A DNA stretch of 64,000 nucleotides from a virus (taxonomy: Duplodnaviria; Heunggongvirae; Uroviricota; Caudoviricetes). The notes under the pieces were generated by a model. The model ran no database searches. It was not told where the DNA came from and saw only the letters and a list, made by a program, of their open reading frames with translations. The position numbers and the translations under genes are program-made. Of this stretch, positions 6,512 to 51,196 are shown in pieces. Numbering within the stretch: position 1 is the stretch's first letter; every line of letters begins with the position of its first letter. Location of the stretch: IMG/VR virus record IMGVR_UViG_3300021255_002251. One strand, 5' to 3'.

Positions 6512-6525
6512 TGTAGGTGTCCTCT

Positions 6526-8609: not shown

Positions 8610-9170
8610 TTATTTTTTTTCTTGTTCTAATTCTTTGACTATCTTTGCCGTTTTGGATTTTCTGATTATCCGTACAGTTACTAATTTTCTTGTTCTGTCT
8701 CTCTTTAAGTCTGTTACTGCATTCCAGTTTCGCCATCCAAGTAGCCGTATACCAGTATACTCGATTTCCTTCCTTACCTTATCATAATCTAGCAAAGTTA
8801 GAATCTTTCTGTAAACCAAATCGCACACCAAACGAAACTTCCACTTGCAATCGTACAAGGCATCATGGACGATTGCTGCAAGAAGCCTAGGCATCTCGAA
8901 TGGAAACCCGATGAGATAGTCGAGCATCTCCTTGTAGTCCTTCCCTGGATAATGCTTTGCGATAATCTTGCAAGCATATTCCACGAACTTGCTTGATTCT
9001 AATGCTTCCTTTGGAACTGTAGCCCCATCTGTCTCATATCCCTCTTTGACATAAACCATAAGGGAATACCCTAGCCACAAGCCAACAAAAGTAAGATGGG
9101 GTTCTAGCAATGTAACAATGCCTTCTTCATTGGGACATGAGAGATTCGGTTCTTGTGGGAAGATTGTCAT
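8610..9170 (-). CDS. hypothetical protein
   Basis: ORF; contains DGATVPK...VHDALYD. Confidence 0.4.
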   Translation of the reverse strand: MTIFPQEPNLSCPNEEGIVTLLEPHLTFVGLWLGYSLMVYVKEGYETDGATVPKEALESSKFVEYACKIIAKHYPGKDYKEMLDYLIGFPFEMPRLLAAIVHDALYDCKWKFRLVCDLVYRKILTLLDYDKVRKEIEYTGIRLLGWRNWNAVTDLKRDRTRKLVTVRIIRKSKTAKIVKELEQEKK

Positions 9171-9197
9171 TTGTCAGTAATCAACCTTTTCTTATAC

Positions 9198-9599
9198 CTA
9201 AAGTTCTGCGCTAGATAGCAGGGTTTCTACTTGAGCATCTGTCCATTCTAGTTCTTGTTGCAATAGTTGCTTCCCTTGCTTGAAGAAAACATTAGTGTCT
9301 GAAAAGTCCTGTGCCGCGAGAAACAAATCGTACAAGTCCCGCTGCTCTAGAAGAGTTTTAACGGAATCCCATACATTAGCCGCCTTCAATGCAGCAACTA
9401 TACGAAGTTTAGAGAATGTTCGCCCTTGTGGCTTTGTGGACGTTGGAATGTATTCATCCGTCTCCACATATGTACGATGGGCATCTGCTGGATCATATGC
9501 CTCTTCATACAACCCTTCTGGATACCCTCCGCGAATCATTAACCCTTTATCAGAGTAAGCGCGAATTACTCCGCTAGAAACTTCTTCATAGACTACCAT
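9198..9599 (-). CDS. hypothetical protein
   Basis: ORF directly upstream of the tail-fibre genes. Confidence 0.4.
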   Translation of the reverse strand: MVVYEEVSSGVIRAYSDKGLMIRGGYPEGLYEEAYDPADAHRTYVETDEYIPTSTKPQGRTFSKLRIVAALKAANVWDSVKTLLEQRDLYDLFLAAQDFSDTNVFFKQGKQLLQQELEWTDAQVETLLSSAEL

Positions 9600-9638
9600 A
9601 CATTTTCTCCTTGTTGATAGATGATGTTGCTCGCTGAA

Positions 9639-12600: not shown

Positions 12601-13739
12601 GCAACGGTAGGCTTAAGCTCTCCCAACTCCTCCAACGGCCCCAATTTGGCCGTTACAGACTCCAAACAGTTATATTCATCTGACAGAGTCAGTTTTACCA
12701 AAACTCCTCCTGCAGAAATACCCCTATATAGATAGATTTCGCCATCGTAATACCGAAGAAAAGCATCGCCGCCACCAGTAAAGGTACGGCTATCTTTTGT
12801 CCATGTCTGACTATCCGCAGAATATAAGAACGTTCCGTCTTCTGGGCTATATAATATGGCATATCCATTGACTGTTATAATTGGCGTACAAGAAAAAGTA
12901 TATTGAATATTAGACCGCGTAGTACCGTTGAGATATTGCGATTGCCCGTATTTCAACCCTGGAGATGTAGTGTTGGAACTATAGTTAACATAATACCCTT
13001 TATTATATCCTACATGCTGTGTATTAGAAACCATATAGTTGCCGCTATAGGACTGTCCGCTAGATGAAACTGCAACAGCACCATTGGCTAGCGCAAAACA
13101 ATTGTTGTTTGCCACTTCTAACCTATAATAGTCATATCCATCGCCCGATGCATGAGTCCATGTAGCCAAATCAGTTGAGTAATAGATATAGTATTGGTAG
13201 ATGATGATAAACTTGCTATTGAAGAAAATGAGGTCTTTTATCTTCTGGTCTGTAATCTGGCTTGTCTGCGTCCATGTAATTCCGTCTGACGATGAATATA
13301 GGTGTCCCGTCTCATCCGCAGGAAGCGCGACATATAGGTTGTTCCCGTAGACAATCTTTGAGAAGCGTCCTGTGGTCTGATTCGTCTGGCTCCATGTCTC
13401 ACCGCCATCCGTAGAACGATATATGCCAGAATCCGCCCTGTCATAACATAGGAAAGAAACTCCATTGGCAATGTCAAAGTAATAAACCGACTCGTTGAAT
13501 TGAGATAGAGTAGTTGGAGCGCTAAAGATAGTACGAACAATTAGCCTTCCGTTCGCATCTACTCCATTCAGAGTCAAATCCTCTACCACCTGCCCTACCG
13601 CACCTGGGATAGAAGCGATAGACTCCGGCCACTGGCTTAAGTCGTTTGTTGGCGAGACGGTTGGGTTCTTCGCTTCTATCGCAGTCTTGATGTTCGCCTT
13701 GTTGGTAATCAACTGCTGGATTTCACTAGCGATGCTCAT
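9639..13739 (-). CDS. tail fibre / receptor-binding protein: BNR (Asp-box) repeats, tandem 51-aa modules, Gly linker, C-terminal BspA-type leucine-rich repeats
   Basis: Multiple S-x-D-G-x-T-W Asp-boxes (STDGGETWSQ, YSTDGINWTQS, YSADGQTWYQV and others). A 51-aa module ..SLTPGIVPSGNINITTTAQTDVSNYATAQVVDADLVAENIKSGVEILGV.. is repeated. GSGGGGGS linker. C-terminal Cys/Tyr-rich LRRs (IPSSITVLSSYVFDNCYSLHIVSLPATMYELGTYAFRNC...). Its ATG overlaps the upstream gene's stop by 4 nt. Confidence 0.8.
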   Translation of the reverse strand: MSIASEIQQLITNKANIKTAIEAKNPTVSPTNDLSQWPESIASIPGAVGQVVEDLTLNGVDANGRLIVRTIFSAPTTLSQFNESVYYFDIANGVSFLCYDRADSGIYRSTDGGETWSQTNQTTGRFSKIVYGNNLYVALPADETGHLYSSSDGITWTQTSQITDQKIKDLIFFNSKFIIIYQYYIYYSTDLATWTHASGDGYDYYRLEVANNNCFALANGAVAVSSSGQSYSGNYMVSNTQHVGYNKGYYVNYSSNTTSPGLKYGQSQYLNGTTRSNIQYTFSCTPIITVNGYAILYSPEDGTFLYSADSQTWTKDSRTFTGGGDAFLRYYDGEIYLYRGISAGGVLVKLTLSDEYNCLESVTAKLGPLEELGELKPTVARQTYSYDSNKYIGYDSFELAPINSRTLTITPSTVSQSIGTRWWVLGSNNNTGIWQSYNITGSSPTITQTGKNNGSFLWITFARGYFLAGGQFYGTWYSADGQTWYQVSGGTANAYFYCVAYGQNRIVAGTSIGIRYSSTVTSWTLSNKQDSSWRAITYGDGIFVAGSSSSSVGLWYSTDGINWTQSNKKNDTWYSLKYGLGLFVAGSDSTGLWYSADGINWTQSNVTSGGFGALDFGSSRFIAGSNANSGLWYSTDGMTWTQSDKTDGYFSSITNNRAIPRAIKYVAASNSGLWISSNGQTWTQIASGQGVNWGAAYYPEEFIYASTVTVKPVTAAIDADITAENIKSGVEILGVTGSLTPGIVPSGNINITTTAQTDVSNYATAQVVDADLVAENIKSGVEILGVSGSLTPGIVPSGNINITTTAQTDVSNYATAQVVDANLVATNIKKDVPILGVTGTYEGSGGGGGSANAVVFYDYDGTVLHSYSASEANALTALPALPSHSGSGLTCQGWNFSLAQMKSTLQAMGTCQVGAIYTTSDGKTRAILTVRDPKFSTVKLTLTQSVVNSVSINWGDGSGATTWSGTSQTTLTHTYSPSSYPATYTIAITVNSGTLTLNRMNLADVTEESNNATTQLFAKTSMLKEVHLGSNIKIGDSAFLACQFLEHITIPSTITSVGQKAFNECSRLQSIIIPSSITVLSSYVFDNCYSLHIVSLPATMYELGTYAFRNCRSLATITLPYTISFIAGYIFYNCSALSSIVIPPNVKTIGTYAFYYCYGLVECRMSSVLTQIASYGFAYCYGLRSLVLPSTLSSLGAYAFQNCYALPINLQSLTQVSKLNNYTFFNCYAMKTCSIPSTVTSIGTYVFSGCRFETVTIPESITSISSNLFQACSALQSITFPSGITSIAAGAFNNCHGVRTFDFRKSSSVPTLGNVNAFVYTDSTKEIIVPDALYNTWKAASNWNSTTNNIVNCIVKASESSLGPLT
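11278..11583. repeat. near-identical 153-bp tandem duplication inside the tail-fibre gene (2 full copies plus partials)
   Basis: gcatccaccacctgtgcggtggcatagttcgacacatccgtctgtgccgtagtcgtgatgtttatgttcccagaaggaactatcccaggcgtaagcgaaccag recurs at 11278 and 11431. Confidence 0.8.
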
Positions 13740-16700
13740 GGTTCTTCGTTCCCTTCATTGGCATTATTCACCAAGTTGGTCCCTGTATTAATCTCATGCA
13801 AGATGTTTTCCAGATTTGCCAACTGTGCTTCCAATGCCGCAACACGATTGGATAAAGCAACTAGTTGACTATATAAGGTGTTTGTAGCGGAATCCGTATA
13901 GTTGGTAGCACCATTCGCTACCGCATAGTCCTTTGCATCGACATAAGCCCTGACTGTAGGTATGACAATATTTATCTTGTTTTCTACATGCTGGCTCAAG
14001 TTGGTTTCCCCTATCCAAAAGTTGTCTATGCCCCCAATTGGATTGATGTTGAATGAGCCTACACCATGAGACTGGTACTTCGGCAATGCAGTTATCTCAC
14101 TTGCCGACATGGCTTGGTAGTTAGTTGGATAGTAGTTCCACACGAACGCCCCTTGATTAGTGGCAGATGCGGTCGTTCCTAGCATTATTGAATTACGGGC
14201 TTCTAGTCCAGCATTATGGCCGACTCCCATCATGTATGCTTCGTCGGAAGAAGAGTTGTTGTAAGTTCCAAAGATATAGTTTAGCCTTTTGTATTCCGCA
14301 TTGTTCGAAGACCCAAGAGAAAAAGAGTTTGTCCCGAGAATATTAGAACTGCCAAGGGCAATAGATCCTTCGCCAGCGGAATTTCCAGAACCTAGGGCTA
14401 GAGAGTGATCACCAATGAAATTATTCTGTCCTATGGAAAATGAGAAAGCTCCCATGCTTCCTGTAAAACCGATGCCAATTGACCCGAATTCGGAAACAAA
14501 GTCTTCTCCTATGACTAAAGAATATGAATCGGCTGTTATGCCTAAGCCAAACCCGGAAGAAAAACTTCCCACTGTATTCTGCTCTCCAAAAACAGAAGAA
14601 AAATCACCGGCGGAAATCCCGATTCCGAAAGCCGTGCTGTGTCTCCCTATTGAATTATCATAGCCGAAGATTGCAGCGTAGTCATCTCCAGCATTTGCTA
14701 ATCCGAAAACAGCAGAACCGAATTTTACTGAATTCGTGAATTGTTCATCTCCAAAAACGATGGAGTTGGCACACCCTTCGGATACTGCACCTATAACCAA
14801 GTTGCTAAATCCGCCATCGACGTGCCACCGTACCACATTAGATATGTTAGAACTTGTAACAAGGTGGTCTCCATTAGCAATCGGCTTGTTCGTGAGAAAA
14901 TCTCTTCTGGCGGTTATAGTTCCACCGGGGACCATAAATCCTATCTCATCATCGTTATCGCTTCCCGGCTCATCGGTTGAATACTGAACACCGTTTTCCG
15001 TATAATACAATGTCCATAAGCTGCCCGTCCTGATGATATAAAGGTCCAACATACCTTGCGGTACGTTTGAGAATTTCCAATCGGAAAATCCAACCCCGTT
15101 AGTGTATACTGCCATATCCGTCTTTTGCCGCATGTTGTTGGTTGCATACGAAATATCGGAAAGATAGGCAAGCTGGGAGACGGAAACATCACCCGTCTGT
15201 TCGTCATAAGAATGGACACTCCATCTTCCGTTATAAAAGATACCGGTGTTTCCGTCCGTAAGTTCTCGGGCGGAATCCGCATTAAGTGCTTCCTCCGCAT
15301 ATTCACTATGTCCGTTGAAAAACCATAGATTATCAATTGAACTGAAATAGAAGGGGGGCATTGCGGCCTCTCCGTTGGCCGTCATGAGGGAATTTGTTAC
15401 ACGGTCTACATAGTTTGTGGCTGGCGTGAGATCTACAGTAGGTGCGCCAGTTATGACGGAATATGGGATTGAGTTTGTTGGGTATGGAAGCCTATCCTGC
15501 TTTTGAGAATCTACTGTTGTAGGCAGCCACTCAACATTATTGCTAGAAGGGGGACTGTCTCCTGGCTCGAGCGGAGCATTCGCCTTCCATAGTTTACCAG
15601 CATATGATACTACCTCTCCACGCAGATATGACTCCGACGACGACCATTGTTGATAGGCGCTAGATGCATCTAGCTTGTTGGACACTGCCATGTCCGTGTA
15701 GTTCGTAGAGGCTGTCGCCGCATTACTCACATCCGTATGCATGGCATATACTGAAAGATTTGGTGTCCCAGATATGGAAGAGTAAGGAATGGCATTAGTT
15801 GGATACGGAAGTTTCGTCTGATAGAGCGACAGGTTCGGAGTACCGCTTATCACCGCATATGGGATTGAGTTAGTTTCATATGGCAACTTATCTTGCTTCG
15901 CTGAAATTGCCGTATCCTGCATCGAGTTTGTCTCTACGGCCCTGTCAATCGTTTCTAGTATATCTACCCCGTTGACTCTGATAGAGCCCCTACTCGCGCC
16001 CTGCGATGCCCCGCTTATTGTGATTCCACCATTAGAATCATAATTGTCGTTGACAACTAAGGAGCCTCCTGCATAGTGTCCTCCTCCTATTGAAAGTTGA
16101 GGCTCTAGGAAATCCTCATCTCCGCCGATAAGAGCAAGCCGACTATTGTTGAAACTTATACCGCCATTCTGCGAAACTGGCAAATACCCTCCAAGGTCGC
16201 TCTCCAACGCAAGCGTATCTCCCGCCGTACTAACCGACGTGACCTCCCTAGAAAACGTAAATATTGTTCCTTCTATGTCCTTGACCAAATTAGTTGCATT
16301 TGAATTGCTCGATATGATATATACCGAGCTTCCTGAATATGCATACCATCCCATGCCATCCCATCCGCTTCTCCCGCCGAGTTCTTCCTCGCTCGTCACC
16401 CATACTGGGAGACCGTCAATGTCATAATTGTCGTCAGACCTCGTATACGACCAGTCCCCGAAGGTATAGTTCGCAACCGTAACCGTTCTGTCAGAATTGA
16501 TTACATTGATGCCGTCGGTGATTCTCTTTATTGACTGAGCAATAGAATCCGTATAATTTGTCCCATCCTTGGCCGCCGCGTTCACTTCCGAATGAGTAGC
16601 ATAGCCAGAAAGAGACGGAGTTCCAGAAATGGCTGCATAAGGAATAGCATTCGTTGGATAGGGAAGCCTGTCCTGCTTCAGCGAATAGATGAATACTTCT

Positions 16701-17833
16701 TCCCATGAACTTGCCGCATCCCCATTCACGGGTTCGTACACATACCCGCTAAATGTAACAACTGAACTTAAAGGGACTCTCCATAGCCTCCCAAGATGCG
16801 ACACAGTATCCCCAGGCTCGTATTCGTCGTTGGGATTCCATGCGGGATATGTAGCCGCCCCATTCAACTTCCCGCTCACGTCGGGTATCTGGTTCGTCGT
16901 GGCGAACGGGTGGCCAGCATTCTGGTTGGTTGCGGGTGGCCCGTCGTTCGTCAGCTGCGAGGTCTTTGTCGGCGTGATGAGGCGGCGTGTCGCTGTGACT
17001 CCTTCAGCCATGAACTCAACATTCAAGTCTGATTCAGAGGTGCCACTAATCTCGAAAAAATCTCCATCAGATAGCGTCAGCGTCCACGTTCCATTTGCAA
17101 AAGTCATGCTTTCAACCGTCACGCCGTCTGGGAGAACAAGCCCGCTGAACTCCCACTCCGTGAACCCCGTGTAGAGAGCCGTTCCAGTAGCCTTGGCATC
17201 GGCAGCAGATCCCGCCGTTGCATTCGTGGACGGCGCAACGACAGCCACCGCTGGGGGTATGTCGTTCGTAAGCGCGAGCTTGCCGACATAATCTTTTACA
17301 TAGATAGAATCTCTGAAAATATAACACTCAGAGTTTCCGACTTGTGTAATATTGGTAGATGTCGCACCTCCTATTTGGTCTCCTGTTATGGCCGAATATA
17401 CATTTCCTTCCTTTTCATAATATTCGACAACTGATAGGTCCTCCCATATTCCAATGTAGTAGATGTCTCTATACGGAATATCTGATACCCATCCATTCTT
17501 GTAGCCTTCTGATGATACATAATACGTCTGGAATGTCATTCTAATATAAGGAGAATATGTAGTGCCTTCAAAACTCTTGATATACCATGGCGCAAATCCT
17601 TCTTTCAACACGTTCCTCGCCGCATCTATCGTGTTCGTGCCGTCTGAAATCTTGCTTGGCTCGACATAAGATTTCAAATCCCCTAGCGTCCCAACCCCCA
17701 TATCAATATCTCCAAGCAATGTCTGGTTAGTAGCGGCATTCCCATCCGTATCTACCAATGCGCCAATAAGCATTGGCGAGCTCACAGATGCCAATGCGAA
17801 CCAAACCAATGATTTAAGAAAAGACTTAACCAT
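13736..17833 (-). CDS. second large tail fibre / tailspike-like protein (1365 aa)
   Basis: Repeated LPYPTNxIPYxxISGTPxLS modules. A Gly/Ser-rich beta-roll-like region (SIALGSSNILGTNSFSLGSSNNA...) is reminiscent of YadA-head repeats. C-terminal coiled-coil ALEAQLANLENILHEIN. Confidence 0.7.
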   Translation of the reverse strand: MVKSFLKSLVWFALASVSSPMLIGALVDTDGNAATNQTLLGDIDMGVGTLGDLKSYVEPSKISDGTNTIDAARNVLKEGFAPWYIKSFEGTTYSPYIRMTFQTYYVSSEGYKNGWVSDIPYRDIYYIGIWEDLSVVEYYEKEGNVYSAITGDQIGGATSTNITQVGNSECYIFRDSIYVKDYVGKLALTNDIPPAVAVVAPSTNATAGSAADAKATGTALYTGFTEWEFSGLVLPDGVTVESMTFANGTWTLTLSDGDFFEISGTSESDLNVEFMAEGVTATRRLITPTKTSQLTNDGPPATNQNAGHPFATTNQIPDVSGKLNGAATYPAWNPNDEYEPGDTVSHLGRLWRVPLSSVVTFSGYVYEPVNGDAASSWEEVFIYSLKQDRLPYPTNAIPYAAISGTPSLSGYATHSEVNAAAKDGTNYTDSIAQSIKRITDGINVINSDRTVTVANYTFGDWSYTRSDDNYDIDGLPVWVTSEEELGGRSGWDGMGWYAYSGSSVYIISSNSNATNLVKDIEGTIFTFSREVTSVSTAGDTLALESDLGGYLPVSQNGGISFNNSRLALIGGDEDFLEPQLSIGGGHYAGGSLVVNDNYDSNGGITISGASQGASRGSIRVNGVDILETIDRAVETNSMQDTAISAKQDKLPYETNSIPYAVISGTPNLSLYQTKLPYPTNAIPYSSISGTPNLSVYAMHTDVSNAATASTNYTDMAVSNKLDASSAYQQWSSSESYLRGEVVSYAGKLWKANAPLEPGDSPPSSNNVEWLPTTVDSQKQDRLPYPTNSIPYSVITGAPTVDLTPATNYVDRVTNSLMTANGEAAMPPFYFSSIDNLWFFNGHSEYAEEALNADSARELTDGNTGIFYNGRWSVHSYDEQTGDVSVSQLAYLSDISYATNNMRQKTDMAVYTNGVGFSDWKFSNVPQGMLDLYIIRTGSLWTLYYTENGVQYSTDEPGSDNDDEIGFMVPGGTITARRDFLTNKPIANGDHLVTSSNISNVVRWHVDGGFSNLVIGAVSEGCANSIVFGDEQFTNSVKFGSAVFGLANAGDDYAAIFGYDNSIGRHSTAFGIGISAGDFSSVFGEQNTVGSFSSGFGLGITADSYSLVIGEDFVSEFGSIGIGFTGSMGAFSFSIGQNNFIGDHSLALGSGNSAGEGSIALGSSNILGTNSFSLGSSNNAEYKRLNYIFGTYNNSSSDEAYMMGVGHNAGLEARNSIMLGTTASATNQGAFVWNYYPTNYQAMSASEITALPKYQSHGVGSFNINPIGGIDNFWIGETNLSQHVENKINIVIPTVRAYVDAKDYAVANGATNYTDSATNTLYSQLVALSNRVAALEAQLANLENILHEINTGTNLVNNANEGNEEP

Positions 17834-19053: not shown

Positions 19054-19890
19054 CTATCTTTTTTTAGCCAAATACTCCTTAAGATTGCTTGCTGGCATAG
19101 TGTTATCTTTTCTATATGGTATGTTAGCCACAAAATTCTTTGCGAAGTTCCTCTTTGCGGACACACATGAATCTGGGGCCTTCCCTAGAGAATTGAATGT
19201 CCTTCCGTCTAGCCTGTCTTCCGTCTCGACTTCAGATTCGACTTCACCCATATAATCTTTCAGAAACTTCTTGCTGTCGCATTGCTGCCCATACTCAATG
19301 GAGTCCATAGCGATGGTCATTCCGTCATCTTTGCCGCCCACAACTACGACCCCATCTCCTACCGCCACATACGGCTGCATGAAGTTGTCCTCCGTGACGG
19401 GGAAAGGATAGTAGTCCTTCTCCCTCTCAACCGCCTTGTCGTTCTGGCTCCATAGAATTTCTGGCAGCAATTCTTCGTTAAGTTCGGCATCTGGCATCTG
19501 CAGGAGAACCGGCATAGATGAGAAGCCGATGGACTTGAGCAGCATTCCGCGATGTCGTCCATCATGTCCTATCACCTTCCAGATTCCGTCCTCATTCTCT
19601 TTGCATATGAGATATGGAATGTCCCACTTTGTCGGCTTGCCCGCAAGAACATCCTTCTTGAACTCTTCCTGCGGTGCATGACGTTTCTCATCATCTTCGG
19701 GTATAGGCTCTGCCAGACCTAAGAACTCTTCTATCGGCATATCAACTATCTGTGCATAGCCCTTGTAGTTGCCGCTCTTTGGCTCTAGCCCCCATAGCAT
19801 AAATCCTTCTGGCGCAAAGAACCTATGGACAGGCATCCCCTCCACCTTGAGCCTAACCTGTTCGTCTTCGCAGAATGAAAAGAAGTTCAT
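19054..19890 (-). CDS. hypothetical protein (possible ParB-like nuclease fold)
   Basis: VIGHDGRHRGMLL loosely resembles the ParB/Srx dGxHR motif; weak. Confidence 0.35.
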   Translation of the reverse strand: MNFFSFCEDEQVRLKVEGMPVHRFFAPEGFMLWGLEPKSGNYKGYAQIVDMPIEEFLGLAEPIPEDDEKRHAPQEEFKKDVLAGKPTKWDIPYLICKENEDGIWKVIGHDGRHRGMLLKSIGFSSMPVLLQMPDAELNEELLPEILWSQNDKAVEREKDYYPFPVTEDNFMQPYVAVGDGVVVVGGKDDGMTIAMDSIEYGQQCDSKKFLKDYMGEVESEVETEDRLDGRTFNSLGKAPDSCVSAKRNFAKNFVANIPYRKDNTMPASNLKEYLAKKR

Positions 19891-19897
19891 ATCCTAT

Positions 19898-20080
19898 CTA
19901 CTCCGTTGGTCTAAATTCCCAGTATGTCGCATGTGAACCGCACTTAGTGCATGGGAAGAATCCATGTGTTTCATCGGACTTTATCTTCAAGTCCTTTGTT
20001 GTCACAAAGTAAACCTCTCCACATGTATTGCATTTGATTCTTACATGCCCATAAGGTATGTCTGTCTCTGACTTGACCAT
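19898..20080 (-). CDS. zinc-ribbon protein (CxxC...CxxC)
   Basis: KCNTCGEV....CTKCGSH. Confidence 0.4.
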   Translation of the reverse strand: MVKSETDIPYGHVRIKCNTCGEVYFVTTKDLKIKSDETHGFFPCTKCGSHATYWEFRPTE

Positions 20081-20089
20081 ACATCCTCC

Positions 20090-20875
20090 TCATCGGAAGA
20101 TTTGCTTGCCGGCGAAACCATTTCCCAGCATAGTGCTCTGTGGGTTCTCATATGCCCGTAGGGTCTTGTCGCTCTTCAATTCGTTCCACAGCGCTTCATA
20201 CGACTTGCGCGAATCGTAGTGTCGAAGAAGAGCATTTGTAAACTGCCCTCCTGTTGAAGCTCCATACGAATAGGTATCGTCAGGGCATCCGCTCCAGCAC
20301 AGCATCGAGAACTTCTGCTGCTCATTCAACCTATGATCCCACGATAGAGGTGGCCGAACCTTAAACCCAGGAGCGCGATACATCGTCTGCGAATGGCAAC
20401 AATCAAAGTATAGGAACACCCTCCCCTTGCTCTTGCTTATGATGCTCCATATCTCATTGTCTCGCATGTAAGTATCGTAGAGACATAGGAACTCATCCTT
20501 CCCGTCCACCTCTTCATTTCCAGTATTGTAAAACGGCTCGCTCCCTCCGTGTCCGGAATAGCAGAATATCACAAGCCCATCCGTTGCGCTTGCAATGGCC
20601 TTGTTCAATGCAGCCGTCACATTCGCTTTCGTGGCATTGGAATCTCTAAAGAGAACAATGTTCGGAGTATATGCCGATAGAAGCTTAAACATCCTATTCG
20701 CATCGTACCCCGCCCCCGGACAATCGCCAGCGAACCTCGAATTCTCCATACCAACAACCACCACATATGTGTTGGTTGATTTCGCTTCTGGCTGTATAGT
20801 TCCATCGGACTTGCATCCGCCGAATCCTAGACACATTCCAAACGCAACTAGAAATGCCATTACATGCTTCTTCAT
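20090..20875 (-). CDS. lipoprotein with caspase-like (peptidase C14) domain
   Basis: Lipobox MKKHVMAFLVAFGMCLGFGGC. Catalytic dyad context YSGHGG (His) and FDCCHSQ (Cys), as in caspase / metacaspase / CHAT folds. Confidence 0.55.
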   Translation of the reverse strand: MKKHVMAFLVAFGMCLGFGGCKSDGTIQPEAKSTNTYVVVVGMENSRFAGDCPGAGYDANRMFKLLSAYTPNIVLFRDSNATKANVTAALNKAIASATDGLVIFCYSGHGGSEPFYNTGNEEVDGKDEFLCLYDTYMRDNEIWSIISKSKGRVFLYFDCCHSQTMYRAPGFKVRPPLSWDHRLNEQQKFSMLCWSGCPDDTYSYGASTGGQFTNALLRHYDSRKSYEALWNELKSDKTLRAYENPQSTMLGNGFAGKQIFR

Positions 20876-20897
20876 CTTTCTGCTCTCCTTGCCTTCG

Positions 20898-21338
20898 TTA
20901 TTCCTTTGGCTCTGCTATCTGGTTTCCCTTCAAGTAAATGTAGATGTCTAAGTCCGTCCCGCCTCTCTCGTTATCCCTCGTGTCGACCTCTACACCATAC
21001 CCATTAGAGGAATTGTTTTTGGCTCCAATCTTTTCCAAGAAGTCCTCAAAGTAAGTCTGAAGGTCTTCCGCCGAAACATCTTCCTGCATTCCTGGTATCG
21101 CCATGTCGTAGCGAATGTATGTCTCATCCCCCATCTTCCCCTCATCTGGACTTCTATAGAACTTCTCTTCGAGAAGGTCTTCCTTTATGTCCAGCGGAGG
21201 AGCATAATCATCCAAGTAAGATACGAATGCCCTCTGTATGCTATCGGGATTCCATAGTTCGACTACTTCAGCAAGTTCGTCGAATGCCACAACCCCCGAT
21301 TGAGCATACAGATATGAGTAGAAATTCGTCTCTCCCAT
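20898..21338 (-). CDS. hypothetical acidic protein
   Basis: 146-aa ORF, Asp/Glu-rich. Confidence 0.4.
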   Translation of the reverse strand: MGETNFYSYLYAQSGVVAFDELAEVVELWNPDSIQRAFVSYLDDYAPPLDIKEDLLEEKFYRSPDEGKMGDETYIRYDMAIPGMQEDVSAEDLQTYFEDFLEKIGAKNNSSNGYGVEVDTRDNERGGTDLDIYIYLKGNQIAEPKE

Positions 21339-21417: not shown

Positions 21418-22317
21418 CTAGAAAAGGAAGCCTTGGCTATATGTCTGTGCTTTCTCTTTTTCGGAGATATAATTCAGATAGAGGCTTTCAAACACCTCCT
21501 CCGTCCTGCCCTTTCCTAAGTATCTCTCGAAAGACGAATTCCCCGCATTGAGATATTCGTGGCGCTTATAAAGGCTTGTAGGAAGGTCGTATGTGCAATC
21601 CGTTTCACCCCGCTTGCCATCAAATGATAGAATCCATTTGCACTTGCGAGATGTTAGCCAATCGACAAAAGCATCAATATCTATACCTCCATAGTACATC
21701 TGCCTTTTGTGTACAGAAGCATACGGAGGGTCTAGGTAGAGGAAATCTTGGCATCTTGGTTCTAATGTTTCATATGATGCGCTCCGAAACTCTACAGACT
21801 TCGCCTTGAGAACTAAACTCCAGTCTCGACATATCTCTTTCAGTCGGACAGGGTGTATTCCGGGGCGTGAGAAATGACATGAATTATTGAACTCCCCCTT
21901 GTCGTTGTACCTCGGCATCCCATTTGTTGTAGTCCGCATTATGAAAAGGAAATCAATCGGGCTATGCTCTCTATTGTACCTGTCACGAATCGTATAGAAC
22001 ACTTCCTTTCTTCGCTCATAGTCCTCCTCACATAGCCCATGACGGTTGAATGCTTCCCACAATTCTCCATATCCATTGCATAGTTCGTCTGGATAGTCCC
22101 TTATCATGTTCCACAACCCGATAAGGTCTCTATTAACGTCAGATGCGACATATCTAGCGACCTTAACGGTAGGTGTATTAAGAAGACGATATAGTACGGA
22201 GCAGCCGCCACAGAACGGCTCATAATAGGTGGCAATCTCCCGTGGCATTCTGGCTACAATCTCCGCCGCTTGGCTTCGCTTGCTCCCGCTCCATTTGACT
22301 ATTGGCTCTAGTTGCAT
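21418..22317 (-). CDS. dam: DNA adenine methyltransferase, Dam / D12 class
   Basis: N-terminal KWSGSKRS (equivalent of Dam KWAGGK) and catalytic LYLDPPY. Its ATG shares the A at 22317 with the upstream gene's TAA stop. Confidence 0.85.
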   Translation of the reverse strand: MQLEPIVKWSGSKRSQAAEIVARMPREIATYYEPFCGGCSVLYRLLNTPTVKVARYVASDVNRDLIGLWNMIRDYPDELCNGYGELWEAFNRHGLCEEDYERRKEVFYTIRDRYNREHSPIDFLFIMRTTTNGMPRYNDKGEFNNSCHFSRPGIHPVRLKEICRDWSLVLKAKSVEFRSASYETLEPRCQDFLYLDPPYASVHKRQMYYGGIDIDAFVDWLTSRKCKWILSFDGKRGETDCTYDLPTSLYKRHEYLNAGNSSFERYLGKGRTEEVFESLYLNYISEKEKAQTYSQGFLF

Positions 22318-23138
22318 TAGAAAGCAAACTCCCCTTGGACAAGCCCCCTAATATCTATTGGCTTGTCATCCTTCGGCACGAATTCTCCCTTTAGTTCCGA
22401 ACTCTTCTCCGCCATCCCTTCCGCCATCAACCTTATCGGCATCCCATGCGCAAAGTAGCACGGAGTATACCACGGCCCCTCATACACTTCTCTCGAGAGA
22501 GAATCTTGGTGTGTGACTACAGCAGCATATCCTAGAAGAGAAAACTGGACATATGAAATGTAGCTCGCCGTAGGGTCTAAGTCTTCCCCATACAGAATCA
22601 AGTCGCATTGCCGACCGCCACTATCTATGAAAGCCTCCGCCGCTTCGATGAGCAATGCGCCGGCTCCGCAAGAGCAGTCGTTCATCCTTATTATCTTTCC
22701 AACCTTCGGGGCTTCACTAGCCATGGACATTCTCGCCATCATCCTAGCAATGCAATCGGGGGTTAGATACTGTCCAAAATGTTTGTTCGTTGCACTCAAT
22801 GCTTCATACACATGTCCTAGGAAATCGCTTCTCCTCAATTCTAGGGCCTGTACCACATAGGATAGCAGCACGGCAATCTTTCCCATTCCCTCATTGCCGT
22901 ATTTAGACACGAACGACATATACTGCTTTTCGATTTCTCCCTTTTCTTTTTCGTCCAGTGTCACAGCCCCGCTAATGGAAAGAGAGAATATCCTGCAGGC
23001 GTCGCAGAAAATAGTCCGCTGGTCTATGGACTGCGAGACGGAAGACAGAAGTTTTAGGAATGCCTTAAAGTATCCGTCCCAAGTTGTAGGCTCATCTACC
23101 TTGCGGACCGTCACCCCATTCTGCTGACTCTTTCTCAA
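22317..23138 (-). CDS. HsdM / N6_Mtase-family homolog lacking the catalytic NPPF/Y motif
   Basis: GQYLTPDCIARMMARM (motif X, GQ[FY]xTP) and DCSCGAGALL (motif I) are present. No NPPF/NPPY/DPPY follows. The ORF ends at a stop/start overlap with dam. Confidence 0.5.
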   Translation of the reverse strand: MRKSQQNGVTVRKVDEPTTWDGYFKAFLKLLSSVSQSIDQRTIFCDACRIFSLSISGAVTLDEKEKGEIEKQYMSFVSKYGNEGMGKIAVLLSYVVQALELRRSDFLGHVYEALSATNKHFGQYLTPDCIARMMARMSMASEAPKVGKIIRMNDCSCGAGALLIEAAEAFIDSGGRQCDLILYGEDLDPTASYISYVQFSLLGYAAVVTHQDSLSREVYEGPWYTPCYFAHGMPIRLMAEGMAEKSSELKGEFVPKDDKPIDIRGLVQGEFAF

Positions 23139-23542
23139 AACAATGTCTCCTCTTTGGGATTGACGTCGATCTCCTCTATCGTCTGCCCTATCTTGTCACC
23201 AAGCCATCTAGAAACAATATGACGATGACAGAATTTGTCAGGGGACTCATAACACATAAGCACCACTTTGTCTGTAGAACTCCTCTCTGCATACCTCCCC
23301 AATTTGAGCATGATTTCAGGTGCAGAAGCCATTGAAAGAATCTCCTTGTTGTACTTCTCTTCGTACACACCTGGATTGTTCTTCGCTCCAATGATTTCTC
23401 CTGTTGGCGCGAGGTCGGAAAGATACCATACAAGAAGGTCTTTGGAAAGAAACCATGGCCTAGTTCTCGCAATGCTTACAAGAGCATATCCCTTATCAGA
23501 ATATGCTTTCGCTTTTGCGAAATATCCAGTCCCGATTTTCAT
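23135..23542 (-). CDS. DUF488 (YeaO-like) family protein
   Basis: Collinear similarity to E. coli YeaO: ..KGYALVSIARTRPWF..LVWYLSDLAPTGEI...VVLMCYESPDKFCHRHIVSRWL.. Confidence 0.55.
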   Translation of the reverse strand: MKIGTGYFAKAKAYSDKGYALVSIARTRPWFLSKDLLVWYLSDLAPTGEIIGAKNNPGVYEEKYNKEILSMASAPEIMLKLGRYAERSSTDKVVLMCYESPDKFCHRHIVSRWLGDKIGQTIEEIDVNPKEETLF

Positions 23543-24330
23543 TCCTCACCCCCTTTAAGAAAAACTAGCCGTGCCTGCAGCCAAACTGGGACCTCCCTTC
23601 CCATAGCCACTATCTTCTCCGTATACCCAACATAATCAAAAGGCAACTGTCTCCACGTCACCCTTGGTATGGAATCGTCTATGATTGCATAAGTGCTATA
23701 CCTGCACAGTCTCGGATAACCAACGCTACCTACATTGAATATTGCCTCGCTCCATCCGTTTAGAGGTTGTGCAAGTCTTTTCCTAATACTTTTAGGTAAT
23801 GTCCCGTGGATAAGATTGCGGTCATCAGACGTGTTCCTTGCATACAACTCCGCTCCGTGAGTATGCCCTATGAAGAGAGCATCTATCCCGTTCTTGCGAA
23901 TCAAGTCCAGCTCCACTATTGCAGAGTAAATGGAGCCAATGTACCCGAACTGCTCCGGTATGGCATAGGTTCCGTGGCTAAATGCAACCTTTGTATCTCC
24001 AAACTGCTTCTCAATCTTGTACGGAAGGTTAGCTAGCCATTTCTTGTTCTCTTCCGTTACAAGTGGGCGATTAGATACAATGCCCTGTGCGGCATAGTGG
24101 TTGAACCAGTCAAGCGACAACTCACCTACAAGAGCAGCATCGTGGTTTCCCTTGATGCACTCTATGTCGTTCCGCTTGCAGATTTCGATGCACTCGTTCG
24201 GGTCGTATCCGTACCCAACGATGTCACCGCAGCAGATGATGTTCTTGCACCCTAGCCGCCTAGCGGAGTTGATTGCTCTCCGAAAGGCGGCAGGGTTTGC
24301 ATGAATGTCGCTAAAAACGGCTGTCTTCAC
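23539..24330 (-). CDS. calcineurin-like metallophosphoesterase (Ser/Thr phosphatase-like)
   Basis: Motifs FSDIHAN, GDIVGYG, GNHD, GHTH. Confidence 0.8.
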   Translation of the reverse strand: MKTAVFSDIHANPAAFRRAINSARRLGCKNIICCGDIVGYGYDPNECIEICKRNDIECIKGNHDAALVGELSLDWFNHYAAQGIVSNRPLVTEENKKWLANLPYKIEKQFGDTKVAFSHGTYAIPEQFGYIGSIYSAIVELDLIRKNGIDALFIGHTHGAELYARNTSDDRNLIHGTLPKSIRKRLAQPLNGWSEAIFNVGSVGYPRLCRYSTYAIIDDSIPRVTWRQLPFDYVGYTEKIVAMGREVPVWLQARLVFLKGGEE

Positions 24331-24641
24331 TTTGCTGGTTCTCCGTCCTCTAGTTCCTCATGCTGCCGCCACATATATGCCTCTTCAAGGAGCGACTTCA
24401 CCTCATCGTCAACGATAGACTCATCAACACCACGACACTTTGCCTCGAACTTGATGTAGTGTTCCGCTTTCTTTAAATCCTTCTCTTCGGATTCTCCGTC
24501 CTTGCATCCTGCTCGCCAAAGGTACTTCAAAGCAGAACCTTTGTTAAAGTTAAGCCCCTTCTCATATATGAAGTCCTCGAGGTACTTCCCGCAAGGAAGC
24601 AAATAATACGTTGTATTGTTTATTTGGGCTGCCGATGCCAT
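24327..24641 (-). CDS. DUF3310-like phage protein
   Basis: KYLWRAGCKDGE...DLKKAEHYI resembles the DUF3310 consensus. Confidence 0.45.
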   Translation of the reverse strand: MASAAQINNTTYYLLPCGKYLEDFIYEKGLNFNKGSALKYLWRAGCKDGESEEKDLKKAEHYIKFEAKCRGVDESIVDDEVKSLLEEAYMWRQHEELEDGEPAK

Positions 24642-24825
24642 TTTACTTTTCTCCTTGTTTGATTGCAGAAATCACATCCCTTATGCACCTATGCACAACA
24701 TCCTTTGCCCACTGACAGTTGAAGATATAGCACAACAGTACAAAAGACACAACCGCTGTCAAGCATCCAAAGCAACTGCATCCGCAGTTTATGGTAGAAG
24801 GCTTTCTCATCTCTTCTTCCATCTG

Positions 24826-26136
24826 TCAAGCTCCAACTCTTTCTGTTACCAAGTTCCCGTTATGGCAGAGCAACTTGCACTTGCTCATGGCTTTCACAAT
24901 TGTCTTCCCCTCATCGCTACGGCTAAGACACACTCTGTTATCTGACCCTTTTACTGACGATACTATATATATAACTCCGTTGAACTTGACAGTATCCCAA
25001 AGAGAGAATCCACGAATCCTTCCGCTCATCTTTTGAGGTCTCCTATATCCGCACTTTAGTTCTTTAGCGGTCATCTTACTTTTGTCCTTGATTGACTTTG
25101 GAGACAAAATCGTGTTGTCATGCAGATTCCTCCTATGCCTTCTTCTCTGATACAGACGATAGACATTATATGAATTGAGAAGTGCATTAAAATTCCCTGC
25201 TATGCAGAAAGAATCGTTTCTGTGGCTTTTCTCGACATTGTGTTCCCTCCGTGCCATCGCAGTCTCATACCCATAGGTGAACTCTACTGGAGTCTTCCAA
25301 GAATTATGCACAAGTTTATCAATCAGATATTTTCGCATGGAATTCATATGTGCCTCATTTTTGTGTATAGGCGGTCTCTTAAACTTCAACACCTTCTTCT
25401 TCTGGTGATGGGATTCGTGGCATTCGTGGCACAAAGTCACCACATTGTCTGGAGAATTGCTACCGCCATCCGCCCTACGGCGGATATGATGCACCTCTAA
25501 CCTTACGGACTTGTCCTTATATGGACTTGCACCGCACACTCGGCATTTGTTCCCGTCCCGCCACTTGGCATAGGATTTCAAATTCTCCCATCCTTCCAAT
25601 GCGCCTTGCTGATACTCTTCTCCTTTGATTGATGGATTCTGTATCTTTTGAGTATCAAACTTTCCAATCTCCACACGTAATCTGCTTACTGGCAGAATCT
25701 TTCTTACGAACTCTATTGCTCGTATGTGAGAATCAGCCTTATGCTTCACAGACGGCGGGAGAGAAGCATTTCTTTCTTCGTTCGCCCTGTTCGCCCACCT
25801 CGCAGGCCTATACCAGTTGTGCTTTCTTCCTCGTCTCCCCCTCCGCATTTCCCTACGGGCAGTCAATAGATTAGACACATCATCCCGTATCTCAACTTGC
25901 GCAGAGTATAGTTCCTTCTTTTCTGTTGATGCAGTCATCCCGATGTGCTTGCTTCCAACATCGACGCCAAGAGTAACTTCTTGACGATGATGGAAACTAT
26001 CGCAAAGAAGTCGAATGGTAAAAGGCTCTCGCCGTACTACCTTCGCCCTCTTATGCTTTAGAGAATATGCAACCCACCCGAACCGTTTGGTCGGCATTAG
26101 AGGTTTGCCCTCTTTATCCTGTACGTATACTAGCAT
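24826..26136 (-). CDS. iscB: IscB-like RNA-guided nuclease (PLMP-RuvC-HNH; OMEGA / Cas9-ancestor family), 436 aa
   Basis: N-terminal VYVQDKEGKPLMPTKRFGWVAYSLK (PLMP domain). RuvC-I TLGVDVGSKHIGMTAS. Arginine-rich bridge helix ARREMRRGRRGRKHNWYR. RuvC-II-like RLRVEIGKFD. HNH CRVCGAS...LEVHHIRRRADGGSNSPDNVVTLCHECHESHH. RuvC-III KSHRNDSFCIAGN. A C-terminal beta-rich domain follows. Confidence 0.8.
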   Translation of the reverse strand: MLVYVQDKEGKPLMPTKRFGWVAYSLKHKRAKVVRREPFTIRLLCDSFHHRQEVTLGVDVGSKHIGMTASTEKKELYSAQVEIRDDVSNLLTARREMRRGRRGRKHNWYRPARWANRANEERNASLPPSVKHKADSHIRAIEFVRKILPVSRLRVEIGKFDTQKIQNPSIKGEEYQQGALEGWENLKSYAKWRDGNKCRVCGASPYKDKSVRLEVHHIRRRADGGSNSPDNVVTLCHECHESHHQKKKVLKFKRPPIHKNEAHMNSMRKYLIDKLVHNSWKTPVEFTYGYETAMARREHNVEKSHRNDSFCIAGNFNALLNSYNVYRLYQRRRHRRNLHDNTILSPKSIKDKSKMTAKELKCGYRRPQKMSGRIRGFSLWDTVKFNGVIYIVSSVKGSDNRVCLSRSDEGKTIVKAMSKCKLLCHNGNLVTERVGA

Positions 26137-50942: not shown

Positions 50943-50947
50943 AAAAA

Positions 50948-51022: not shown

Positions 51023-51113
51023 ATTTGCCCCTTATCCCACCACTTTCAGCGGGGGCTACCTCGTTTCCTCATATAGACCGACAGAGCGGGACTCCGGCGG
51101 AGAGGCTTCTAAA

Positions 51114-51189: not shown

Positions 51190-51196
51190 ATGAAAT

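Follow-up and report, generated by a model that had tools for sequence, protein, structure and literature searches.

To our knowledge, the caspase homologues of bacteria and their viruses have been discussed almost entirely as intracellular effectors of cell death or immunity. Orthocaspases have been reported to be Ca2+-independent, and the four-aspartate Ca2+ site is not universal in the metacaspase/orthocaspase subgroup (C14B). Extracytoplasmic cysteine proteases are familiar from Bacteroidales, which have gingipains (C25), PmC11/fragipain (C11) and Bfp (C10), several of them lipid-anchored. Phages, for their part, encode superinfection-blocking lipoproteins (Llp of T5, Cor of phi80 and N15, and Ltp of TP-J34), which use the lipoprotein export route and work at the infected cell's envelope; these are small binding proteins without enzymatic domains. 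The closest described relative of the protein reported here, by both sequence and structure, is GSU0716 from Geobacter sulfurreducens (PDB entry 3BIJ), an uncharacterised bacterial single-domain C14 protein. Among the metacaspases, TbMCA2 has an acidic S1 pocket (Asp95 and Asp211, with Ser156) that gives it specificity for Arg and Lys (PMC4357240, PMC6426788).

Here, we describe a predicted C14 protease with a lipoprotein signal that is encoded in a 64,000-nucleotide stretch of viral DNA, referred to throughout as the window. The original prediction was built on three motifs, all of which are present in the protein: LGFGGC (residues 16-21), YSGHGG (residues 106-111) and FDCCHSQ (residues 157-163).

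Gene and lipoprotein signal

The gene and the elements of its N-terminal region are as follows.

20090..20875, minus strand: protease gene, encoding a 261-residue C14 metacaspase-like lipoprotein (from the open reading frame list, stop codon included)
20885..20890, minus strand: Shine-Dalgarno-like AAGGAG, 9 nt 5' of the ATG, read from the sequence
20816..20875, minus strand: signal peptide (residues 1-20), made up of the n-region MKKH, 14 residues of hydrophobic core and the lipobox residues G-F-G-G
20813..20815, minus strand: TGC, encoding Cys21, which is predicted to be the lipidated +1 residue; the pair G20-C21 does not vary in alignment A1 (31 homologues, 51-87% identity)
20774..20812, minus strand: flexible tether (residues 22-34, KSDGTIQPEAKST), in which position +2 is Lys and position +4 is acidic

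The protease gene is on the same strand as nearly all of the other genes in the window, and is spaced 22 and 9 nt from its neighbours. Shine-Dalgarno-like motifs stand ahead of 40 of the 60 genes of the window (background 16%); a sigma-70 and terminator scan did no better than shuffled sequences. The gene comes after a DNA-methylase and anti-restriction-like block, i.e. early-type DNA-modification genes. Between the window and a 252-kb relative, the protease gene has diverged far more (75%) than its flanks (92-97%). Diversifying selection on the gene was considered and set aside: the difference fits better with recombination, the breakpoint lying close to codon 148, plus a homing-endonuclease-like insertion immediately downstream.

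The N-terminus, MKKH-VMAFLVAFGMCLGF-GG-C21, fits the PROSITE-type lipobox rule, and the protease is the single genuine lipobox ORF of the window. The claim that it is a lipoprotein extends to the family: an SPII-type signal is present in 119 of the 126 full-length relatives, with Gly at -1 in 119/119. The N-termini of the homologues are 24-95% identical, yet their properties (positive n-region, hydrophobic core and G-C) are kept. The tether varies in length and sequence among homologues, and the pLDDT is below 50 for residues 19-28. The protein is thus predicted to be exported and to carry lipid on Cys21. In Bacteroidota the export signal of surface lipoproteins is K-(D/E)2 or similar immediately after the +1 Cys (PMC5080379), which the C-K-S-D-G of the window protein matches in part; the homologue tethers have Lys at +2 in 66%, Asp or Glu at +4 in 39% and at least one Asp or Glu in +2 to +6 in 77%. 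With such an export signal, the probable site of action of the enzyme is the host envelope and not the cell interior.

This signal bears directly on an intracellular role, in which the protease would cut host immune proteins to counter defence, or would serve the phage in abortive infection or in competition with other phages. Several bacterial defence systems use caspase-like proteases as effectors, the generic 'caspase' model of PADLOC gives a partial match (E 1.6e-10) and anti-restriction-type genes (methylases and a Lar-like zinc ribbon) lie beside the protease gene. However, the PADLOC match spans only 130 of the 453 profile positions, the protease has a catalytic domain but no regulatory one, and no sensor, TIR, CHAT-TPR, gasdermin or NTPase partner occurs in any locus. 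The conserved type II signal peptide, with its G-C, points instead to export, and we regard an intracellular caspase-like effector as very unlikely.

Predicted fold and active site

The Pfam profile Peptidase_C14 (PF00656) scores 60.9 bits over residues 39-234, where the cut-off is 21.4 (E 2e-16); NCBIfam returned sub-threshold matches only. In a sequence search of the PDB the best match was entry 3BIJ (GSU0716; E 1e-15), followed by metacaspases. The AF2 model (pLDDT 78.8, pTM 0.77) gave the same ranking in Foldseek, with 3BIJ at the top (E 5e-14, TM 0.67) and then fungal, trypanosome and plant metacaspases, MALT1 and caspases, at a probability of 1.00. The profile search, the PDB matches and an intact His-Cys dyad bear out the original assignment to the caspase/metacaspase family, and the predicted fold is caspase-like. 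In the model, His109 and Cys160 lie at the C-terminal ends of strands 101-108 and 152-159, which correspond to the neighbouring parallel, dyad-bearing strands of the caspase fold; neither the fold nor this placement of the dyad refutes the original prediction.

The features of the catalytic domain are as follows.

20702..20704, minus strand: Asp58 codon, aligned with the metacaspase S1-pocket Asp (TbMCA2 Asp95); invariant in A1
20540..20560, minus strand: YSGHGGS, residues 106-112, with the predicted catalytic His109 (codon 20549-20551) and Ser107; invariant in A1
20390..20404, minus strand: D-C-C-H-S, residues 158-162, with the predicted catalytic Cys160 (codon 20396-20398) and the S1-pocket Asp158
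20339..20386, minus strand: low-confidence loop, residues 164-179 (pLDDT below 50), equivalent to the p20/p10 linker and holding the nearly invariant Arg167 at the place of a metacaspase Ca2+-ligand Asp
20279..20299, minus strand: CWSGCPD, residues 193-199, in the p10-like half; invariant in A1

The YSGHGG of the protease aligns with the same motif in GSU0716, Yca1 and AtMC4, the D-C-C-H-S with the DSCHS of metacaspases, and the CWSGCPD with the ISGCQD of GSU0716, matching the SGC(Q)D motif of GSU0716 and metacaspases. His109, Cys160, Asp58, Ser107 and Asp158 are all invariant in A1, as are His161 and Ser162, while residue 159 is Cys, Ser or Ala. The dyad, the pocket residues, YSGHGGS, DxCHS and CWSGCPD are also kept in relatives at 40-45% identity. 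The protein has neither the N-terminal prodomain of type I metacaspases nor the long p20-p10 linker of type II; it has a signal peptide, a 13-residue tether and a linker of ~16 residues, an architecture resembling that of single-domain bacterial forms such as GSU0716. Its identity as a C14 homologue is well supported, and the agreement goes well past coincidence. Invariance of the dyad, pocket and motifs across homologues is the pattern expected of an active enzyme, and we predict an active cysteine endopeptidase (clan CD, family C14) of metacaspase/orthocaspase type.

The same conservation weighs on the proposal that the protein is a catalytically dead structural lipoprotein, blocking a receptor or channel by binding in the manner of Llp of T5. 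The known phage exclusion lipoproteins act by binding and not by catalysis. Pseudo-orthocaspases are common in bacteria (PMC6426788). With the dyad, pocket and motifs invariant down to 51% identity, and retained below that, a dead enzyme is scarcely credible here.

The pocket residues Asp58, Ser107 and Asp158 align with Asp95, Ser156 and Asp211 of TbMCA2; in Yca1 and AtMC4 the counterpart of Asp58 is the CIND/CVND aspartate. An acidic S1 pocket of this metacaspase/orthocaspase-like kind predicts cleavage after Arg or Lys, not Asp, and the protein is probably an Arg/Lys-directed protease, a P1 preference that we read from the aligned pocket. The metacaspase pocket Cys aligns with Ala55, and an invariant Cys52 lies three residues earlier. 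The four-Asp Ca2+ site (Asp173, Asp189, Asp190 and Asp220 in TbMCA2) is incomplete, with two of the four ligands replaced: Asp190 by Asn140 and Asp220 by Arg167, each at least 90% conserved. Among the other aligned ligands, Asp139 is clear and Asp124 is tentative, placed by its offset from the catalytic His. Arg167 aligns with an Asp of Yca1 (in 'TVLDLP') and with a Lys of GSU0716. With two ligands replaced, regulation may differ from that of known enzymes, and the protease is probably independent of the canonical metacaspase Ca2+ site.

Phage origin, host and distribution

The window carries portal, primase, NrdD and RNA ligase genes and 15 tRNAs, its genes run in one direction, and a 271,425-bp contig encodes a protein identical to the NrdD of the window. 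The portal, primase, NrdD and tRNAs, with the NrdD identity, uphold the phage origin claimed for the gene; the window belongs to a large rumen phage of roughly 270 kb. No evidence of lysogeny was seen.

The host is probably a member of the Bacteroidales. The 'Prevotella sp.' and 'Bacteroidales' labels of related sequences derive from metagenome binning. NrdD homologues lie mostly on contigs of huge-phage size, with one 'Bacteroidales' MAG label only, and searches with the portal and primase against phage records gave distant matches with uninformative hosts. The strong Shine-Dalgarno motifs of the window are atypical for Bacteroidota and count against a Bacteroidales host; the Bacteroidota promoter pattern TTTG-N17-23-TAnnTTTG has 0 matches in the window against 1.3 expected. 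In a monoderm host the protein would face the wall on the cytoplasmic membrane and the likely substrates would change.

Homologues of the protease number 475, and E values below 1e-30 were obtained for 94 clusters formed at 50% identity. All of the wider contexts that were sampled looked phage-like, mostly on contigs of 88-432 kb; some homologues are on contigs of 250-287 kb, one of which is an IMG/VR UViG. Several lineages of huge phages from rumen and gut have kept this C14 lipoprotein family. No match was found in a reference phage collection of 50,697 records, either by megablast with the 12 kb around the gene or by tblastn with the protein. The sole PHROG match is marginal and N-terminal (phrog_542, E 0.019, a family of unknown function), and the best of the BFVD phage entries (E 6e-3, TM 0.40) leaves no caspase-fold match among them; the only strong caspase-fold matches among predicted viral structures are from giant eukaryotic viruses (E 2e-13 to 1e-6). 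A family-motif scan of GTDB species genomes gave no confirmed relative and, as its patterns were narrow, excludes close relatives only. The large multidomain relatives with C-terminal caspase domains have no PHROG match and lie on short, uninformative contigs. The description of such proteins as unusual in phages therefore stands for INPHARED, PHROGs and the phage entries of BFVD, and fails for rumen and gut metagenomes, in which the family is widespread in huge phages. Our literature search turned up neither a phage lipoprotein caspase nor a phage-encoded LpxR; a compact C14 protease of active appearance, predicted to sit behind a lipoprotein signal in phages, was encountered neither in the reference collections nor in the literature searched.

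Genomic neighbourhood

The immediate neighbours of the gene are as follows.

20898..21338, minus strand: upstream neighbour, a 146-residue acidic protein (pI 4.05) without a signal peptide
19898..20080, minus strand: downstream neighbour, a 60-residue zinc-ribbon protein weakly similar to Lar-like restriction-alleviation proteins
19054..19890, minus strand: downstream neighbour, a 278-residue protein that contains the motif GHDGRHRG and whose gene shows synteny within the closer lineage

The gene for the 146-residue protein is syntenic with the protease gene in loci L001, L005, L010, L013, L024, L028 and others, all of the closer lineage. The protein has no Pfam, PHROG, PADLOC or PDB sequence match. 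Its AF2 model has a pLDDT of 81 and the best PDB fold match is not significant (E 4.7e-3, TM 0.36), and on this result the idea that it is a staphostatin-like cytoplasmic inhibitor was dropped. The zinc ribbon matches phrog_6422 (E 4e-4) and phrog_1315 (E 2e-5), with a marginal match to PADLOC PDC-M14A (E 1.3e-3), and is conserved in L005, L009, L023 and L028. Homologues of the 278-residue protein, for which there is no Pfam, PHROG, PADLOC or PDB match, adjoin the protease gene in L001, L005, L010, L012, L013 and L028. We considered the 146- and 278-residue proteins as a functional module with the protease and rejected this: synteny is lost in lineages below ~55% identity, so we treat it as lineage synteny. 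Neither protein has a signal peptide, and they say nothing on the envelope. In L005, genes for an NAD synthase, a nicotinamidase-like protein and a NUDIX protein lie near the protease homologue.

In diverged lineages the protease gene is associated with other envelope-directed genes. A gene for LpxR, an outer-membrane lipid A deacylase, lies within ~1 kb of it in the diverged loci L039, L045, L053 and L065, and a second lipoprotein is encoded one or two genes downstream in L015/L016, L035 and L036. The window itself has neither an LpxR gene nor a second lipoprotein gene. These arrangements could be explained by a processing or nutrient enzyme, which would mature an exported phage protein (for example LpxR or the second lipoprotein) or degrade external proteins as food, like the C10, C11 and C25 proteases of Bacteroidales. 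Adjacency to other exported-protein genes in several lineages is in its favour. Lipid-anchored or secreted cysteine proteases are moreover common in Bacteroidales, and some C10 protease genes travel on mobile elements. Huge phages carry many auxiliary metabolic genes (PMC11662467). The partner genes, however, vary by lineage and are absent from the window while the protease is kept, which makes a dedicated maturation role for one partner unlikely; as no lysogeny was seen, long-term benefit to the host is doubtful. Overall, we judge a processing or nutrient function to be unlikely.

The neighbourhood also bears on a role as a lysis or egress accessory that would cut outer membrane-wall ties or other envelope scaffolds late in infection, helping or replacing spanins. 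The protease is a lipoprotein like the o-spanins and is predicted to lie outside the cytoplasm, and among the ORFs of the window scanned against PHROGs or Pfam none was recognised as a spanin, holin or endolysin. In L035, the gene overlapping the start of the protease gene encodes a 79-residue protein predicted to span the membrane twice, and a second lipoprotein gene comes after the protease gene; this arrangement is absent from the close relative L036, where an isochorismatase-like gene is upstream. No endolysin or holin gene is adjacent in any sampled locus, and no lysis gene was recognised in the related loci or within ~6 kb in the window, where the neighbours are methylases, the zinc ribbon and unknowns and the protease gene follows early-type DNA-modification genes. 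The protein is also four to five times the typical size of an o-spanin and has no partner i-spanin. Taken together, a lysis accessory is improbable. Of the roles raised in the original prediction, an abortive-infection module is disfavoured by the context, and a classical lysis cassette finds no support in it.

Proposed role

The best explanation, to which we assign a probability of roughly 45%, is that the protein is an exported, lipid-anchored Arg/Lys protease that remodels the envelope of the infected cell, a role assigned by guilt by association. The protease would be made by the phage during infection and exported via the Sec pathway, whereupon signal peptidase II would cleave the precursor and Cys21 would be lipid-modified. 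The short flexible tether would then anchor the 27-kDa catalytic domain on an extracytoplasmic membrane surface, which in a host of the Bacteroidales would be the outer membrane, possibly its outer face. There, envelope or surface proteins would be cut after Arg or Lys by His109 and Cys160, with Asp58 and Asp158 forming the acidic S1 pocket. Protein receptors may thereby be destroyed or masked, so that superinfection would be blocked and progeny kept off debris. In some related phages the protease may act alongside the phage-encoded lipid A deacylase. We infer the substrates and the biological role from these predicted properties and the gene context, and on that footing the protease most likely serves to destroy receptors or to exclude superinfecting phages.

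A bolder generalisation is that huge gut and rumen phages deploy a receptor-destroying, lipid-anchored Arg/Lys metacaspase, some of them together with an LpxR that deacylates lipid A, excluding competitors and freeing progeny; this we consider rather doubtful. If envelope remodelling is the true role, it would be a new enzymatic route by which phages edit the host envelope, and an exported prokaryotic caspase homologue (metacaspase) would have been given a function for the first time. Superinfection exclusion by a protease would be a form not described for any phage. The protein would also provide a small, probably Ca2+-independent Arg/Lys protease scaffold. For uncultured huge phages, most of whose accessory genes lack an explanation, the C14 lipoprotein family is a tractable single-gene handle.

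Comparison with known systems

GSU0716 matches the phage protease with E 1e-15 as a single sequence and 3.6e-26 as a profile, with only about 23% identity. The two proteins are similar in size, are single chains with p20-like and p10-like halves and share YSGHGG, DSCHS and SGCxD; the position of the fourth metacaspase Ca2+ ligand is basic in both. GSU0716 differs in being encoded on a bacterial chromosome and in having no lipoprotein signal visible in the crystallised chain. Being uncharacterised, it gives no functional guidance for the phage protease.

Metacaspases share with the phage protease the caspase-hemoglobinase fold, the His-Cys dyad in the same motifs and the acidic S1 pocket, and an acidic cluster follows the catalytic His (Glu122, Asp124, Asp127, Glu128 and Asp139), as in the Ca2+-dependent metacaspases. 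They are cytoplasmic, however, and often have prodomains, long linkers or extra domains, whereas the phage protein is a bare domain behind a lipoprotein signal. The metacaspases and caspases of giant eukaryotic viruses (Fadolivirus, Megaviridae, Medusavirus and others) are likewise virus-encoded C14 proteins, but are intracellular in eukaryotic hosts, larger (230-450 residues) and without a lipobox. Caspase-like effectors in defence (CHAT/Craspase, the type IV Thoeris caspase and gasdermin-activating proteases) are cytoplasmic and have a partner gene in the operon, while the phage protease has a signal peptide and no partner domains in any locus.

Among extracytoplasmic proteases, the C25 and C11 enzymes have the same clan CD fold as the phage protease and often prefer Arg or Lys. 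The C25, C11 and C10 proteases of Bacteroidales are chromosomal, serve nutrition or virulence and are not known to be carried by huge phages without signs of lysogeny; Pfam assigns the phage protease to C14, and an extra precomputed C25 match occurs in one homologue only (P0056). Of the phage lipoproteins, o-spanins are small outer-membrane proteins encoded with or within the i-spanin gene beside the endolysin and holin genes, in contrast to the 261 residues and enzyme domain of the phage protease. Finally, the protease has no sequence similarity to Llp, Cor or Ltp, and the destruction of a receptor by catalysis would be a different mechanism from theirs.

Protease gene, family and fold

The protease is encoded, together with a putative ribosome-binding site, at the following positions.

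20090..20875, minus strand: ORF of 261 aa (ORF listing), the lipoprotein C14 protease
20885-20890: Shine-Dalgarno-like AAGGAG, 9 nt upstream of the protease ATG

The product begins with MKKHVMAFLVAFGMCLGFGGC. The original prediction, a lipoprotein with a caspase-like His-Cys dyad, was built on three motifs, and this ORF contains them all: LGFGGC, YSGHGG (residues 106-111) and FDCCHSQ (residues 157-163). The C14 assignment is borne out by Pfam, in which Peptidase_C14 covers residues 39-234 with 60.9 bits (E = 2e-16) against a curated cut-off of 21.4 bits. The nearest solved structure by sequence is GSU0716, a C14 protein of Geobacter sulfurreducens (PDB entry 3BIJ; single-sequence E = 1.3e-15, family-profile E = 3.6e-26), after which rank plant and fungal metacaspases.

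An AlphaFold2 model using 31 homologues as input has a mean pLDDT of 78.8 and a pTM of 0.77, with low confidence only at the tether (residues 19-28) and in the loop 164-179. Foldseek against the PDB places 3BIJ on top (E = 5.5e-14, TM 0.67), followed by Candida, yeast, Trypanosoma and Arabidopsis metacaspases, MALT1 and animal caspases, all with a probability of 1.00. In the model, strand 101-108 runs directly into H109 and strand 152-159 directly into C160; in the caspase fold their counterparts are the two adjacent parallel strands bearing the dyad. On this fold match and strand placement, neither the proposed caspase-like fold nor the expected adjacency of His and Cys is refuted. The protein is a member of family C14 and is predicted to act as metacaspases and orthocaspases do.

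Active site

Across 31 aligned homologues (51-87% identity) there is no variation at H109 and C160 (the dyad), in the YSGHGGS and D158-x-C-H-S motifs around them, at D58 and S107, or in CWSGCPD (residues 193-199). The C14 domain is conserved and active-looking, and the invariance of the catalytic residues makes a catalytically dead binding protein the least credible explanation of the gene. In the profile alignment D58 matches the Asp of the metacaspase CIND/CVND motif, S107 the Ser preceding the catalytic His and D158 the Asp of DSCHS. The S1 pocket of Trypanosoma brucei metacaspase 2 (TbMCA2) is formed by Asp95, Ser156 and Asp211 and accommodates basic P1 residues (PMC4357240, PMC6426788). 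The alignment of D58, S107 and D158 with these residues gives the phage protein an acidic pocket and suggests cleavage after basic residues (Arg or Lys) rather than after Asp.

Export signal

With MKKH as its positive n-region, a hydrophobic core of 14 residues and then G-F-G-G-C21, the N-terminus satisfies a PROSITE-type lipobox rule. The lipoprotein signal is conserved: it is found in 119 of the 126 full-length close homologues, always with Gly at −1 (119/119). The sequence identity of the signal drops to 24%, as expected where its physical properties are what is kept. No second credible lipobox ORF was found within the 64-kb window. An intracellular anti-defence or abortive-infection caspase is very improbable, as the signal peptide speaks against it and partner genes are absent.

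The tether after C21 varies from 11 to 30 residues across the homologues; Lys occupies +2 in 66% of them, and 77% have one or more acidic residues in +2..+6. The surface-export signal of Bacteroidota lipoproteins is K-(D/E)2 (PMC5080379); the tether is similar to it but is not an actual match.

Distribution of relatives

A search of 5.8 billion proteins gave 475 relatives; the best 120 are nearly all of 255-271 aa, and several of these lie on 220-285-kb contigs. An exhaustive search of representatives gave 94 clusters (50% identity) at E < 1e-30. The protease is of phage origin: every sampled locus with usable flanks is phage-like in appearance, with neighbours including dUTPase, methylases, RNA ligase, NrdD, RtcB, PolIII-alpha, RecA, Acb1-like and Tad2-like genes, and one locus is a 251,769-bp IMG/VR viral genome. 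No relative was found in 50,697 reference phage records, in PHROGs or, by a family-motif scan that detects close relatives only, in 185,579 GTDB species genomes. Of the predicted viral structures, only those from giant eukaryotic viruses matched the caspase fold (best phage entry E = 6e-3). Apart from generic labels, the only name among the homologues is ‘caspase family protein [Prevotella sp.]’, from a binned 274-kb contig.

Several relatives have features of their own. A different 287-kb phage (L015) has a second C14 gene of 352 aa (12346-13404, minus) 4 kb from its lipoprotein caspase. Among the distant relatives (P0182 and P0186) are one of 1500 aa with four caspase domains and one of 622 aa with a C-terminal caspase domain and a weak, sub-threshold match to BspA-type leucine-rich repeats. 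Three caspase ORFs (L039:7224-7889, L059:10001-10564 and L065:10001-10732, on contigs of 88, 432 and 184 kb) are broken only by one or two in-frame TAG codons each and keep all motifs, which suggests TAG-recoded huge phages. Near the homologue of locus L005 are NAD synthase (1-374), isochorismatase-type, nicotinamidase-like (6495-7043) and NUDIX (19417-20142) genes, which match the NAD+ salvage modules reported in gastrointestinal jumbo phages (PMC11662467).

Genomic context

Nearly all genes of the window are on the minus strand. Recognisable phage genes include those for portal, DNA primase, RNA ligase, a RecE-like exonuclease and NrdD, the last 100% identical to a protein of a 271,425-bp metagenome contig, which is presumably where the window comes from. 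Features discussed here are as follows.

50567-52627, minus: array of 15 tRNA genes (Ile, 3 Gly, 2 Ala, Met, Pro, 3 Thr, 3 Arg, Val)
21418-26136 and 19898-20080, minus: apparent DNA-modification block (Dam-type and N6 methylases, DUF488, metallophosphatase, RRXRR-HNH, Lar-like zinc ribbon)
20898-21338, minus: conserved acidic protein of 146 aa, pI 4.05, directly upstream of the caspase gene
9639-13739 and 13736-17833, minus: adjacent tail-fibre-like pair, ~1365 aa each
2387-2890, minus: nuclease-like protein of 167 aa with a hydrophobic N-terminus and a DRGH motif

The protease gene is spaced 22 nt and 9 nt from its flanking genes. On its 5′ side, in transcription order, are the RRXRR-HNH endonuclease, metallophosphatase, DUF488 protein, N6 methylase, Dam-type methylase and 146-aa protein; on its 3′ side are a 60-aa zinc ribbon (weak Lar-like similarity), proteins of 278 and 298 aa and the two 1365-aa tail-fibre-like proteins. 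The modification block is anti-restriction in appearance. The 146-aa protein is modelled confidently (pLDDT 81) as helical in its N-terminal part and alpha/beta in its C-terminal part. Nothing in the PDB matches it significantly, and the fold appears to be an orphan limited to this phage group (48 homologues). The 9639-13739 protein has, judged by eye, SxDGxTW (BNR-like) repeats and C-terminal BspA-type leucine-rich repeats, and the 13736-17833 protein has a CBM5/12 module (Pfam). The 2387-2890 protein matches EndoG, EXOG and Serratia-type non-specific nucleases (PDB sequences, best E = 9e-17); it may be a phage nuclease that is secreted or associated with the membrane.

Homologues of at least ~55% identity share the gene order 146-aa protein, protease, (zinc ribbon), 278-aa protein; below this identity the neighbours are entirely different. 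In four diverged loci on phage-like metagenome contigs, a gene for an LpxR-family outer-membrane lipid A 3′-O-deacylase lies within about 50-1000 bp of the protease gene.

L045:9001-9912, minus
L053:105-992, minus
L065:8267-8989, plus
L039:7988-8674, plus

Three have Pfam E-values of 1.4e-54, 2.9e-50 and 1.3e-15; a tblastn match, 60% identical to the LpxR of L045, revealed the fourth. LpxR and protease genes are divergently paired in L045 and L053. No account of a phage-encoded LpxR turned up in a limited search of the literature. In three other lineages (L015/L016, L035 and L036) a 270-282-aa protein is encoded one or two genes 3′ of the protease gene, with its own lipobox in L035 and L036. 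The protease gene is therefore repeatedly accompanied by other envelope-directed proteins, and the LpxR neighbours show that at least these relatives infect outer-membrane bacteria.

In the 251,769-bp relative (L009) a 404-aa ORF (8786-10000), not present in the window, is inserted between the caspase and zinc-ribbon genes. It contains several CxxC modules in succession and ends, judged by eye, in a Vsr/DUF559-like region (no Pfam match); a homing endonuclease is thus probable. The L009 caspase is 87% identical to that of the window in its N-terminal half and 58% in the C-terminal half beside the insertion; the flanking genes are 92-97% identical.

Host and proposed role

Binned relatives are labelled Prevotella or Bacteroidales. 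These labels, the tether resembling the lipoprotein export signal and the BspA-type repeats of the tail-fibre-like proteins point to a probable Bacteroidales host. Shine-Dalgarno-led initiation is largely unused in the phylum of the Bacteroidales; the frequent, strong AGGAG-type motifs before 40 of 60 predicted window genes (16% background) are not typical of it.

We consider surface remodelling of the infected cell the most likely role, with an overall confidence of 0.45. The protease would be exported via Sec, cleaved by Lsp and lipidated at C21, and so anchored outside the cytoplasm, where it would cleave envelope proteins after Arg or Lys. Protein receptors would be destroyed or masked, keeping other phages out and sparing progeny from being wasted on debris. 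The gene follows early-type DNA-modification genes and lies away from any recognised lysis gene, which agrees weakly with surface remodelling; neither a holin nor an endolysin nor a spanin could be recognised near it in the window, and a helper of lysis or egress is an unlikely reading. A maturation or nutrient-type accessory protease is just as doubtful.

Comparison with known systems

The literature searched contained no description of a phage-encoded lipoprotein caspase. One survey of caspase homologues in prokaryotes mentions forms that may have an N-terminal signal peptide, and some Clostridium botulinum metacaspase operons of phage-related appearance; it pursued neither (PMC3501461). GSU0716, the closest structural relative, is itself uncharacterised. 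Of the four Asp ligands of the metacaspase Ca2+ site (173, 189, 190 and 220), half appear conserved in the phage protease: D139 aligns with one ligand, and D124, placed by its spacing from the catalytic His, is tentatively another. The remaining two positions align with N140 and R167, both with a conservation of 90% or more; at the last of the four, where the phage protease has R167, GSU0716 carries Lys. We infer that a basic side chain stands in for the cation, so that the phage protease would lack the canonical Ca2+ dependence of metacaspases.
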